From Eledone cirrhosa (Eukaryota): DNA of 64,000 nt. Position numbers and translations under genes: made by a program. Positions 20,548-44,086 of the stretch are shown here, piece after piece. The notes below the pieces were generated by a model, which was not told where the DNA came from, searched no databases, and saw only the letters and a program-made list of their open reading frames with translations. How positions within the stretch are numbered: position 1 is the first letter of the stretch; each line of letters opens with the position of its first letter. Location: the NCBI GenBank assembly GCA_964016885.1, contig OZ024747.1, positions 16,554,001-16,618,000 of the forward strand, given 5' to 3'.

Positions 20548-20791
20548 TAAACGGAAAAAAATGAAACGAAATTTCATTTCTCACTCTTAGTACGGCTGTT
20601 ACTTAAATATAAGTATGTACACTAAACACTGTACAGCTTAACTCGGGATGTTTGTTTACAAACACACCGAGCATTATATTAAATGTTCTGTAAATCCATA
20701 CGTACACATATATATGTGTGCATGTATGCATATATATACATACTATTGTACGTCTGTATACATATATGTATGTACGTATACATATTTATAT
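20548..20791 (-). mobile_element. Short dispersed copy of the 422-bp-unit fold-back element
   Basis: Starts taaacggaaaaaaatgaaacgaaatttcatttctcactcttagtacggctgttacttaaatataagtatgtacac, then switches to the reverse complement of the unit; flanked by (TA)n. Confidence 0.85.
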
Positions 20792-20795
20792 ATAT

Positions 20796-21326
20796 GGTGG
20801 CTGCCAACTCGTTTTTGACTACGGCCACTACTTTATATCCATGTAGGAGAACCCCTACCGATGCGCTGAACAAGTGTGACTTTTTAGTCCAACCAGCGAC
20901 TTGAACACTCTGGTACAAACACTACACTTGTGACAATTATTGACACATAGTGCTGGACCCATGGTACCATGTGATGACAAGTGCAGAGAGATCTCCAGAT
21001 ATAAAGCAATGCCTGTGCCGTGAAACTTTTATAGTGAGCAAAGGCACTGCACAAAGCCAGTCCCACTTTCTTAACCAAGATGATATTTACCAAAAAGGAG
21101 AACAAGTCAACATCATTGGATACCATCAGGGTTGCAGGTGTTATATCAGAGTTTTCCTTCTCCTAGAATTCTGCCTTGGTCATTGACTCTTAAGAGCTTC
21201 TTTGCCCTTTTGACAGGTTTTGTTTTTAGTCCTGCAGGATGTCCAACGTCACCCTCCTCACCAAGAAACCTTGAGACAGGTTGTACTGGCATACATGTTA
21301 CCAGTAGCACCAACTGGTGACCTGAC
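20796..21326 (-). mobile_element. Non-autonomous RTE-derived element (5'UTR-like part + 3' end with C2H2 finger remnant), colinear copy
   Basis: Minus strand has the RTE-5'UTR-like motif ctaggagaaggaaaactctga, translates HKCSVCTRVFKSLVGLKSHTCSAH near the 3' end, and ends in a short stem-loop plus (AT)n tail; second copy at 40978-41584. Confidence 0.7.
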
Positions 21327-21383
21327 CATAGCTTATACACACACACATATATATATATATATATATATATATATATATATGCA

Positions 21384-22275
21384 CAGGGTGCGGACGATAC
21401 TTGTTCGCAATTTTCAATTGCTAATTTCATGCATTTTTTTTTTACTTTCGTTGTCACTCTTGTCTTCATAAAAACAGTGACTATATTTCCATTATTTATT
21501 TTCAGAATAATTGATTATGAATAATTTTGAACCTCCAAATTCGTGGAAGAGACACGGAGATCTTCTTTGAATCCGCGGCCGGGAGGACAAATAAGACCAC
21601 AAGATCAACTCCCAGAACAACAGGTGGCTCGCTGTCACATCCAAAGACGTGTCCAGAGTCATGCAAACAAAGTTTCCAACGACAACATTGGACTTAGGTG
21701 TCGTCAGCAGTCAATGTCACGTCATGGCACCTCACTTCTTCTCTGAGGGCTTCAACCTGAACCCTGATGGCTACATCCACGTTCTGAGCGAAGTAGTAAA
21801 ACCCTAGATCGACCAGGTAGCTGCAGGTAGGCCGTAAGTGTGGTAGTAAGACTCAGCGCCCTGCCATACCAGCCGAAAGACCCAAGCCTGGCTGTCACCG
21901 AACTTCTTTGAGCACACTTCACCTGACATATGGCCTCCCTGCTCGCCTGACTGCAACCCCCTCGGTTTCTTTGTGTGGGGCGCAGTGGAACGACACACCA
22001 ACAGATCTAGCTGCAATACTAAATACGATCTGAAGGCAGGATCACAAGTGCCTTTAGGGGCCTAATTCGGGGGACAGTGACGAAGGCCTGTAGCCGGTTC
22101 CGAGGCCGCATTGAGGCCGTCATCAAAGCCAATGGCGGGTTTATCGTGTGGGATCGAAAGAACAACTCATGAAGACAAACTGACCCAAGTTTGATAAATA
22201 TATCTTAACAAATAAAACTACTGTTATCTTTTTACCTAGACAGTAATGTTGCGAACAAATATCGTCCGGAGCCTG
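21384..22275 (+). mobile_element. Tc1/mariner DD37D (maT-like) transposon, internally deleted, dead transposase
   Basis: 27-bp TIRs cagggtgcggacgatacttgttcgcaa / ttgcgaacaaatatcgtccggagcctg; translates DSAPCHTSRKTQAWLSPNFFEHTSPDIWPPCSPDCNPLG (37 residues between the second D and the third catalytic position) and ...RFRGRIEAVIKANGGFI; several stops. Confidence 0.88.
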
Positions 22276-22340
22276 TGTGTGTGCGGCTGTGTGTGTGTGT
22301 ATGTGTGTGCGTGTGTGTGTGTGTGTCTGTGTGTCTGTGT

Positions 22341-23067
22341 TTATATATATATATATATATTCTCTTGGTTGTCCATCGTAAACGATGATGACATCTACTT
22401 TATTATTGTTCCCGTCTGCCGTGGGCACGAAGGTGGCTATGGAGGCCGATCCTTGAGTTGCAGGTCCGAAGATAGTGGACGCAGGGGAAGAGACCAGAGT
22501 CAGGCCAGAGGTTACCTCTACCTCTCGCCCATCACCGCAGGGCTTTGGGAGTGCACGCTAAAGAAGGAACCTGTGCGGGAAAGGTTTATAGTGGGAGGGC
22601 CAGTGCACAGTGACGGTCCCACTCACTCGGCCACAGAAGCCAGAATCCAGTGGTACGGAGGACCTTCACGACCAGGGACATCCTTGGTTGCAGTGGATGG
22701 CCACGACGTCTGTAGTGCCTTGCCGTGCCCTAGCGAGGCACACCGCTTGCTGTCGCCGCATTTGTGATCGTTGCGACGATGTTGTCCTCCTCCACTCACT
22801 CCGCCGGGTCCAGTCTTCGCATGCAGGGGCAGGTACCCCCTATCTAACTCACCGGGGAGTTTCAGACACGTCCGTCTACCCTCAACCTGGTTCGGACCGC
22901 CAGCCAAGCTGGGTTACCGGGGTGTGGCCGGTGTCACATGCTACAACTTCTTGGGGCCACTGGTGAGAGCTAAGTGTCAGGTGGGCCCTAATCCAGGACG
23001 AGCTGTCCCGAAAAGGGCATGGCTAGCCCTCCCTAAAGAGGTACATGCCGCTCCTGACACCCAAAGC
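22341..23067 (-). mobile_element. GC-rich non-autonomous RTE 5'UTR-derived element
   Basis: GC-rich block in an AT-rich background; minus-strand 3' end gtcatcatcgtttacgatggacaacc stem-loop plus (AT)n; motifs (ggccacaccccgg, catccactgcaaccaagg) resemble RTE-clade 5'UTRs as I recall them. Confidence 0.6.
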
Positions 23068-41584: not shown

Positions 41585-42059
41585 ATATATATATATATAT
41601 ATATATATGCATACATGCATACATATATACGAAAACAGCCACTTCTTTACAGACGACTGCCATCTCTTCAACGAGTTCCTTGCTGTTATGAACCACCACT
41701 TTCTGTGACCGACCTCAATGACAATTTGAGCATCCTGTTATTTCTCTATACTCCATTTTGTTTACTCCACCTTCTCTTTGTGTGTTACATTTTTCCCGTC
41801 TGCGCATATTGTTCCATCTGCGACCGTGTGTGTCCTTGAGATTTGAGTTTTAATAAATATAAGTAATATCCAGAAACTCTTCTCATGTAGGAGCATTCCC
41901 TCTGAAATTCTCTACAATTCCGTTTTTTACTCCACACCTAAAACGTTTCCAATTAAATTTCAAAACATACTTGTTCAAAACTACTTTCTGCCACTTGCTT
42001 TTCCTATGTTCGATCTCTATATCTAATGTATCACACTAAACAATATTATTATTCACCTT

Positions 42060-42283
42060 GGGTGGTGGATTGGCAGTATTGGTAGAGGTAGGGCGGTGGA
42101 TTAGCAGTATTGGTAGAGGGTCGGACGCCATGATTTGATGTATAGAGTTACCGCCCTTGCCATTCTGAGTTCAAATCCCGCCGAGGTTAACTTTGCCTTT
42201 CATCCTTACGGGGTCGATAAAATAAAGTACCAGTTGCACTGGGTAATTGCTTGCCGTGTGCCTAACGTAGAAACTATTATTAT
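42060..42283 (+). mobile_element. tRNA-derived SINE family 1 with tandemly duplicated head
   Basis: ggtggtggattggcagtattggtagagg occurs twice, followed by the full body. Confidence 0.88.
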
Positions 42284-43184
42284 TCACCGTACACTCTTCT
42301 CTCTACCTAACTAGCCACCTAACTCATAATTATTACCCCTTTCTTTAGACCTCTTTTGTAAAAGAATAAACAAGGAACACAATCATACAAAAATGGACGG
42401 ACTGATCAATTGACAATAATGAAACCTGTGTCTCCAGTAAGCCGAATCTAATTATATGACAAATTGTGGAGTGTGCGTGTGACTTAAATGATTCTTAGGA
42501 AATTTTGCAATGTTTATTCGCAATATTTATAATTATTGAACTGAAATTCCTGGGTCGTATAGATTATGAAGTTAACAAAAATTTGCAATTTTCATACTCT
42601 AAATATATATTTGTTAATTTATACATTTTTCAGAATATATTAATAATGTTATCTTTCCGCAATTTGATAAGTTGCTGTATGTTTAAATATATCTCTATTA
42701 TCTATAATTGATCTTTTAAATAAAACTTCTGTTTGGCATTCCCTTAGTTAATTATATAATGATATTAATTTCTTGATATATATTTCTGACATATTTAATT
42801 ATAGATAAGTAACATTTAGCTTATTCCGACTCTTGGCAATGAATCAAAATTGGTAATTTAAAAGTTTTATCAATTTAACTATTTGCCAAAATTATTAAAA
42901 AAACAGTTGACAACATCAACTGCTCTCTCAATATTGTTCCCGTCATCTCAACATTGCTCCCGTCATCTCAACATTCTGCTTTTTTATACTAACAATACAT
43001 TTACTGTGACTCCACCTTTGTTTCTATTACTTAAGACATATATTTCATTTGTCTGACGCAGATTTACTTCCACTCTATAATTTTACCTAAGATCACAGCT
43101 CACATGTTTTATATTGTTTTATCTATGTTTCAGCTTATTGCCTTTCTTCGATAACACTTTCCTTCTTCCGTATATATATATAAA

Positions 43185-43447
43185 AGTCTAAAGTCTGTCT
43201 TAAGCCAGAAGGCTCATTTGGCTGGTGCTTATCCCGGTTTCATGGCATGAAGCGACTGGGCGTACAAAACTGCCCCCTGGACTGGACGCCAGTCCATCGC
43301 AGGGTTAACCCTCCAGGTATTGGTGAGTATACTGGAGCAACGTGAAATGAAGTGTTTTGCTGAAGTACACAGCACGCAACCCAGGAATCGAGCCCACGAC
43401 ATTATGATCGTAAGTCCAACACTCTCACCACTAGGCCATGTACCTCC
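43185..43447 (-). mobile_element. CORE-type tRNA SINE with a different 3' region
   Basis: Minus strand ggaggtacatggcctagtggtgagagtgttggact...gggctcgattcctgg (tRNA head), cagcaaaacacttcatttcacgttgctccag, ccctgcgatggactggcgtcc, tail agactttagacttt. Confidence 0.82.
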
Positions 43448-43612
43448 ACACACACACACACACACACACACACACACACACACACACACACACACACACA
43501 CAAATATATATATATATATATATATATATATATATATATATATATATATATATATATATATATGTGTGTGTGTGTGTATATATATACATATATATATATA
43601 TATACATATATA
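43447..43612. repeat. (CA)n-(TA)n-(TG)n compound microsatellite
   Basis: Directly visible. Confidence 0.95.
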
Positions 43613-44086
43613 TAAACTGAAAAAATGAAACGAAATTTCCTTTCTCACTCTTAGTACGGCTGTTACTTAAATATAAGTATCTATACGTACATACATATAT
43701 GTTTCCAGACGTACAGTAGTATGTGTATATATATATATATATATATATATATATATATAGACGTATGGATTGACCGAACATTTATTATAATGCTCGGTGT
43801 GTTTGTAAACAAACATCCCGAATTAAGCCGTACAGTGTCTAGCAACCATCGTTGCTCATTTGTTCAACACTGACAAAGGAACGCTGTACTAGTTTCAAGC
43901 TTATTAGCTATCTACGGCTCAATTCGGGATGTTTGTTTACAACACACCGAGCATTATAATAAATTTTTCTGTGAATCCATACGTACATATATATATGTGT
44001 GCATGTATGTATATATATATATATATATATATACATACTGCTCTACGTCTGTATACATATATGTATGTAGGTATACATACTTATAT
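43613..44086 (-). mobile_element. Dispersed copy of the 422-bp-unit fold-back element
   Basis: Forward arm 43613-43911, inverted arm 43912-44086; both match the array unit; (TA)n flanks. Confidence 0.88.

Follow-up and report, generated by a model that had tools for sequence, protein, structure and literature searches.

Two-armed insertions of a 422-bp tandem unit in Eledone cirrhosa, a probable non-LTR retrozyme family with Penelope-type ends

Three related repeats in the genome of Eledone cirrhosa raise the question of which mobile element inserts as two opposed arms with two different, constant outer ends. They lie in a stretch of 64,000 nucleotides (assembly GCA_964016885.1, contig OZ024747.1, positions 16,554,001 to 16,618,000), the whole of which is called the window and carries its own numbering. 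The copies compared are A (20548-20791), B (43613-44086) and the tandem array C (57592-61944). A first-pass annotation of the window had described a fold-back family and had pointed to Helentron/HINE elements. The family is probably a non-LTR (LTR, long terminal repeat) retrozyme with insertions of the type made by Penelope-like elements (PLEs): it consists of non-coding tandem units of 422 bp, contains a predicted type I hammerhead and targets (TA)n. The Helentron/HINE label is most likely wrong for this family.

Arms, ends and flanks of the copies

Unit positions 1-422 refer to 61523-61944 on the forward strand, and sense denotes the strand with the hammerhead motif. A self-comparison of the window linked the segments 20547-20794, 43612-44089 and 57592-61944 to each other on both strands. 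Tandem Repeats Finder (TRF) divided the array into 3.3 and 7.0 copies of the unit in opposite orientations.

The strand switches at 20622 in A, at 43912 in B (both as annotated before) and at 58994-58996 in C. The fold-back architecture deduced from these switches is not sustained. The inner ends of the arms are found at unit positions ~348 and 192 in A, 122 and 199 in B, and 4 and 228, plus whole units, in C. Since these positions are unrelated, no fold-back occurs where the strand switches. The arms agree in sense and both point outward; thus, each copy represents two truncated pieces joined head-to-head, an arrangement present in all three window copies. The inner ends overlap by 0-3 bases at the arm junctions. 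Inverted overlap between the arms ranges from ~15 bp in A and 165 bp in B to ~1.4 kb in C. The variable inversion point is better read as two independent 5' truncations.

Six different inner ends are set against two fixed outer ends. Copies A and B and the right end of the array all stop at unit 420-422 and pass directly into alternating TA, which confirms the unit boundary as the shared start of the dispersed copies. The other arm stops at unit 363 in A, 363 in B and 366 in C, and the last 56-59 bp are missing; a common end about 55 bp short had been annotated correctly. This tail is carried at one outer end only in three of three copies, and the tail-less, short end is documented by the window copies alone. 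Within the outer 60 bases of A, B and C, no inverted match of at least 8 bp (one mismatch allowed) and no terminal inverted repeat was detected. The termini are fixed and asymmetric and the copies form a family, as the first-pass annotation held in preference to an eroded miniature inverted-repeat transposable element (MITE). In simulations, three ends fell within 8 bp at both termini with a chance of 1e-5 for uniform ends, of 4e-5 when the ends were restricted to TA-like runs of at least 3, and of 0.019 under a harsh weighting for TA microhomology (2^length), although this weighting predicts other positions.

Alternating TA adjoins five of the six flanks in unbroken runs of 7-73 bases, with longer imperfect runs reported by TRF; TA runs of six or more account for 2.7% of the window. 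The earlier statement that all copies sit in (TA)n applies to these five flanks and fails on the right of copy A, where just 4 bases of TA are followed by a different repeat. In flanks made of TA runs, a target-site duplication is not readable.

With 90.5-97.2% identity to the array unit, the arms of A and B are not assembly duplicates. Divergence from the array amounts to 8-10% over the long arms of A and B, and the two arms of B are 7.5% apart. In array C, merely 4 differences in 4.35 kb separate the arms, which indicates a young array. The coordinates are compiled in Table 1.

Table 1. Coordinates of the family copies, their arms, flanking TA runs and hammerhead motifs in the window
Feature	Positions	Strand	Description
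Copy A, tail-bearing arm	20548..20622	-	unit ~348-422, 3' end left into (TA)n; 69/71 aligned bases identical
Copy A, tail-less arm	20622..20791	+	unit 192-363; 152/168 bases identical to unit
(TA)n left of copy A	20477..20547	.	common to neighbouring two-armed repeat of another family
Copy B, tail-bearing arm	43613..43912	-	unit 122-422; 274/298 bases identical to unit
Copy B, tail-less arm	43913..44086	+	unit 199-363; 150/163 bases identical to unit
Imperfect (TA)n left of copy B	43504..43612	.	
Copy B, truncated hammerhead motif	43881..43912	-	starts at core base G8; 3' two thirds kept
Copy C, tail-less arm	57592..58996	-	unit 228-422, two whole units, then 1-366
Copy C, tail-bearing arm	58994..61944	+	unit 4-422 and six whole units; 3-base overlap with left arm
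(TA)n left of array	57519..57591	.	
(TA)n right of array	61945..61959	.	
Reference monomer	61523..61944	+	422 bp, 39% GC
Representative type I hammerhead motif (predicted)	61633..61675	+	unit 111-153; predicted cut after 61669 (unit 147)
Tail	61886..61944	+	unit 364-422; at one outer end only, also in every internal unit

The repeat unit and its predicted hammerhead

The unit is without coding capacity; read in tandem, its longest stop-to-stop frame comprises 53 codons. No tRNA gene was found by a tRNA search of the window, and an Rfam search of the window at gathering thresholds gave no match. Rfam applied to the unit returned AT-rich, miRNA-like noise only.

A hammerhead ribozyme, missed in the first-pass annotation, is predicted from a motif in the unit. 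The assignment uses the core consensus and numbering of the hammerhead and the architecture given in PMC4209133. Both core boxes are present. Helix I has 6 bp and is extendable by ~10 more pairs, helix II consists of 4 pairs on a U-U base, and helix III is reduced to a 4-base palindromic loop. The predicted cut follows a GUA triplet. The hammerhead-compatible fold (-17.7) is 1.4 kcal/mol dearer than the minimum (-19.1). Metazoan type I motifs have a small palindromic helix III and act as dimers (PMC4209133), and the motifs of axolotl retrozymes include a U-U base of helix II and a palindromic tetraloop (PMC7229834).

A descriptor of the motif matches eight times in the 64-kb window, always inside the array and on the arm-sense strand. 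Eight of the 10 array units are positive, including three consecutive ones in each arm. The tail-less arm of C holds three motifs with cores at 58685, 58263 and 57841. The tail-bearing arm contains seven hammerhead positions, five of which fit the descriptor, while two have a change in helix II. This pair-breaking change is identical in the non-adjacent units 59413-59834 and 60257-60678, a recurrence for which a single monomer circle is a poorer explanation than a dimeric or multimeric template or subsequent unequal exchange. The motif of copy B has lost the 5' core and, of helix I, the 5' side. Still present are the 3' side of helix I, the predicted cut site, helices II and III (the latter palindromic) and the second core box, and the only other difference from the array is in loop II. 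Copy A has no hammerhead motif.

The distribution of the family was followed in public contigs. A run search with the unit listed 24 runs, 20 of them with part of the unit and 6 with at least half of its words; none of the runs is recorded as RNA. The contig sets of four of the 24 runs were aligned to one permuted unit: X1 (9421 contigs), X7 (104), X5 (19) and X4 (4). By these contigs, the family is abundant. At 61522, which corresponds to unit position 422, 39 X1 contigs leave the unit into alternating AT. Three opposite-strand joints are listed, each in one contig; the joint in X4 is head-to-head at unit 411 and 115, and the polarity of the two in X1 is unreadable. Family motifs had 0 matches in metagenome contigs (two collection scans) and in viral contigs, as expected of an animal repeat.

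Sequence variation among the contigs was compared with the predicted structure. In X1, 26 sites vary at 3% or more, none of them among the 25 positions of the core, helix II and helix III (P 0.17). The sole variants in helix I concern the partner bases 61214 and 61250, with a chance of 0.09 of being partners. They vary at 85% and 86% in X7, at 39% and 52% in X1, and at 2% and 15% in X5, respectively. The remaining motif variants affect loop II and the cut-site base, which stays within A/C/U. This pattern agrees with the predicted hammerhead structure, short of proof.

An intron was considered as another origin of the motif. A donor-like site at unit 73 and an acceptor-like stretch at 153-164 would bracket it. 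The idea was dropped on account of 47 X1 contigs with a donor-less variant and no joint skipping from unit 73 to the 153-164 stretch.

Proposed insertion mechanism and rival explanations

Non-LTR retrozymes are recognized by head-to-tail units of 150-450 bp with a GC content below 50% (PMC7229834) and by a type I hammerhead in at least two consecutive units (bioRxiv 10.64898/2026.07.22.740005). The family combines a unit length of 422 bp, 39% GC and the absence of coding capacity with hammerhead descriptor matches in consecutive units. Animal non-LTR retrozymes resemble it as head-to-tail units free of open reading frames (ORFs), with one type I hammerhead per unit and a weak palindromic helix III; those of mussels have units of 350-390 bp (Cervera and de la Pena 2020, PMC7229834; bioRxiv 10.64898/2026.07.22.740005). 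They have been proposed as non-autonomous PLE derivatives (PMC7229834; Li, Clavereau and Pollet 2026, bioRxiv 10.64898/2026.07.22.740005). Among predicted frog retrozymes, cleavage occurred in one of nine elements and in none of the other eight (bioRxiv 10.64898/2026.07.22.740005). Unlike the described retrozymes, whole insertions of the present family consist of two arms in opposition, one of which ends in a tail. In PMC7229834, the word 'inverted' has 0 occurrences; bioRxiv 10.64898/2026.07.22.740005 uses it once, and 'tail' 0 times.

These additional features are those of PLE insertions. PLEs insert as partial tandems with 5' truncation; their 5' end often carries an inverted and likewise truncated copy, a tail of 30-40 bp is present at one end, and hammerheads lie in their pseudo-LTRs (pLTRs) (PMC8557442); these hallmarks are repeated in PMC8969392. 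Head-to-head is the most frequent PLE arrangement (PMC3846280). A PLE protein cut and extended both strands of AT-rich target DNA; the two internal RNA sites at which it started mark the bounds of the tail (PMC11167929). Table rows of Naiad and Hydra PLEs give (TA)n as the preferred target, among them all 6 rows for cephalopods (PMC8557442 supplement). Naiads prefer (TA)n yet have no canonical hammerheads, and the Hydra and Chlamys elements are listed with canonical motifs (PMC8557442). Non-autonomous multimers of PLE type have already been described in algae (PMC8557442). Two exact family motifs, searched on one strand, were not found in the PMC8557442 supplement. With endonuclease-bearing PLEs, the family shares the 5' truncation, the inverted truncated copy joined head-to-head, the one-end tail, a hammerhead in the repeat, AT-rich or (TA)n targets and partial tandems (PMC8557442, PMC3846280, PMC11167929). 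It differs from them by the absence of a reverse transcriptase or GIY-YIG ORF, by its tail length and by arms that can both be multimers. A junction palindrome of the kind known from rotifer PLEs is missing in B and C, by inspection.

On these grounds, the following mechanism is proposed. The array would be transcribed, and neighbouring hammerheads would cut as dimers, yielding multimeric, monomeric or circular RNA. Dimer cutting is proposed because helix III is merely a 4-base palindrome. Both strands of the (TA)n target would be nicked by a reverse transcriptase/GIY-YIG protein that a PLE provides in trans. Each nick would prime complementary DNA (cDNA) at one of two internal start sites, located after unit ~363-366 and after 422; hence, one insertion end would carry the tail and the other would not. 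Synthesis of the two cDNAs would end independently, as early as after 75 bases or only after several units, and end joining would fuse both cDNA ends head-to-head. Later slippage in the TA runs would hide any target duplication. The first-pass annotation had suggested an enzyme that recognises two different ends; the two fixed ends stand, and they are more plausibly explained by two sites at which reverse transcription of one RNA likely began.

The array itself may be one insertion, made by a Penelope-type enzyme that primed twice on opposite strands of a TA run, a reading held only tentatively. Reverse transcription of a 422-base hammerhead RNA circle would then have made 7 rounds from one start site and 3.3 rounds from another, 56 bases upstream.

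Several observations weigh against a retrozyme with Penelope-type insertions. No reverse transcriptase or GIY-YIG Pfam match was obtained in 133 of 195 candidate segments of the window. The tail of 56-59 bp exceeds the 30-40 bp given in the PLE papers. Rfam searches with E values up to 10 on 507 and on 71 bases returned no hammerhead family. A local fold of 76 bases is no more stable than shuffled sequences (z -0.55). The descriptor had been written after the motif was seen, and its shuffle control (0 matches in 20000 unit shuffles and a mean of 0.01 in 100 block shuffles of the window) is therefore post hoc. The variation pattern, in which phase is not visible, is weak alone, and the excess at 61250 over 61214 in X1 and X5 implies some mismatched copies. 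Among the contigs, one X4 record with a depth of 2 looks tail-to-tail, and the tail-less end was seen in none of the 16 loose-end rows listed out of 217. Run X1 is possibly the source sample, and X4 provides 4 contigs only.

A different template has to be considered for the dispersed copies. A and B never extend upstream of unit 122, and their template is unreadable there. They might be truncated pLTR ends of an autonomous PLE, the array being a local derivative that is not propagated by an RNA of its own. Oppositely oriented pairs of truncated pLTRs are a common finding (PMC4209133), and two X7 contigs have a different sequence (median 137 bases) joined upstream of unit 354 (window 61454). 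It could be another family or an autonomous partner sharing the last 70 bases. A pLTR origin is nevertheless unlikely. Contigs from X1, X4 and X5, representing three organisms and three studies, span the junction from 422 to 1. The summed depth in X1 is 0.79 million just past this junction and 1.35 million in the tail, i.e. over half by this rough figure. The unit forms a closed circuit without an open frame beyond the 53 codons, and both arms of C are multimers with next to no differences. Mobilisation of the PLE type, with either version of the template, is very probable.

The HINE idea was reasonable, as HINE criteria match the end geometry of copy A. In HINEs, subterminal inverted repeats (subTIRs) of 12-15 bp are set back from the 5' end by 2-4 bases and from the 3' end by 38-60 bp, a short palindrome lies 8-35 bp from the 3' end, and insertion occurs at TT with strings of T at both ends (PMC4067079). 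In copy A, an inverted overlap of 15 bp lies 59 bp away from one end and the tail contains a hairpin, which is no more stable than shuffles (z -0.93); the tail end of the copies finishes with T bases. Asymmetric ends, an inverted match ~60 bp from one end with a hairpin near it, and internal microsatellites and tandem repeats are also common to Helentron-associated HINE/DINE-1 elements (Thomas et al. 2014, PMC4067079). A rolling-circle element of this kind, its ends marked by a subTIR and a 3' hairpin and its interior amplified in tandem, is nonetheless highly improbable. The inverted part grows from 15 bp in A to 165 bp in B and ~1400 bp in C, and the monomer contains no fixed short subTIR pair (best match 8 bp with one mismatch). 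The short end abuts alternating TA instead of TT in all three copies, both termini lie inside the repeating unit, and, in both arms, the outward-pointing strand is the one with the hammerhead motif. The first-pass annotation had rightly noted that TA targeting and such long arms are atypical for Helentrons. A C-terminal fragment of a Helitron-type helicase at 39321-39683 on the reverse strand (E 1.5e-22 to Helraiser, 7LCC) would suit a rolling-circle origin; it is ~4 kb away from copy B and has no DNA in common with the family.

DNA repair at fragile TA runs, in which pieces of a satellite are copied by microhomology-guided template switching and no transposase defines the ends, deserves equally little credence. 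In its favour, both ends coincide with TA-like patches, 3 and 5 bases long, and the arms of C overlap by 3 bases at their junction. However, the unit holds 21 TA-like patches, and microhomology weighting favours the longer runs at unit 274-283 and 297-305, where none of the six ends is found. The departure of the 39 X1 contigs at one same base also contradicts repair, which leaves the hammerhead motif and the constant head-to-head polarity unaccounted for. A plain MITE with one eroded terminal inverted repeat, which copy B resembles as a hairpin with 165-bp arms, is refuted by the three window copies and has practically no probability left: their outer 60 bases contain no inverted match, copies of different age lack the same 56-59 bp, and copy A has almost no inverted repeat.

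A similar geometry arises in the 5' inversions of L1 by twin priming. Two cDNAs are primed from opposite target strands and joined head-to-head, and the second priming site is variable and upstream. The present family, by contrast, has two fixed outer ends and arms with overlapping sequence.

A search of the open-access literature, with Repbase and Dfam outside its scope, found no description of the family or of a two-armed architecture for a retrozyme. The family and its two-armed retrozyme insertions may be new, while the PLE-type footprint and non-LTR retrozymes are known as classes. An abundant repeat is moved from the DNA transposons to the retroelements, and a PLE footprint proves easily to mimic a Helentron. 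So far, animal retrozymes and PLEs have been linked by shared motifs, co-occurrence and pLTR similarity (PMC7229834; bioRxiv 10.64898/2026.07.22.740005). A retrozyme multimer with the PLE insertion signature on both arms offers a more mechanistic clue to this link and a compact test substrate, made up of a TA target and a short RNA on which two start sites are predicted. If the array is a single insertion, it would be direct genomic evidence for the mobilisation of a retrozyme by a PLE enzyme through rolling-circle reverse transcription. Both start sites would be mapped to the base, in a genome where several unrelated families would share the footprint and unusually long tails (56-68 bp).

Neighbouring repeats and other window features

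Two unrelated two-armed repeats adjoin the dispersed copies. The first (44113-44434) lies directly right of copy B between TA runs; its arms of ~105 bp diverge from the centre and the right arm has ~62 extra bases, the same geometry as in the family. The second (20227-20477) lies directly left of copy A; its right arm ends in TA, and its left arm has ~68 extra bases before a CA/TG run. The shape shared with the family is suggestive, each repeat being single in the window. Hammerhead-like 3' halves at 44285 (189 of 5000 local shuffles) and 20418 (47 of 5000) were not counted as evidence, because chance alone yields a mean of 18.9 such halves per shuffled window.

A further TA-flanked repeat is present in two copies (20796-21346 and 40978-41583). 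Between the copies, its second segment (~300-370 bp) is inverted, the breakpoints falling on short patches that resemble TA, and two stretches of ~40 bp are deleted from the interior of one copy. At 51440-52021, an inverted repeat of 98% identity over 212 bp surrounds an irregular TA run; it has no TA outside and is single in the window.

On the reverse strand, a 223-codon frame (33970-34638) resembles the restriction-like endonuclease end of an R2-group non-LTR element (E 0.004). It is located inside one of two related copies (32732-33531 and 33852-34640) with ATT runs between them. A dispersed short repeat of ~150-200 bp, 70-90% alike and SINE-like (short interspersed element) by size, occurs in at least 9 places, with sites at 3-162, 504-693, 33669-33890, 42089-42284, 50589-50743, 56743-56974 and 63217-63961. 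A TA-rich microsatellite of 1.4 kb with higher-order variation extends over 16931-18337.

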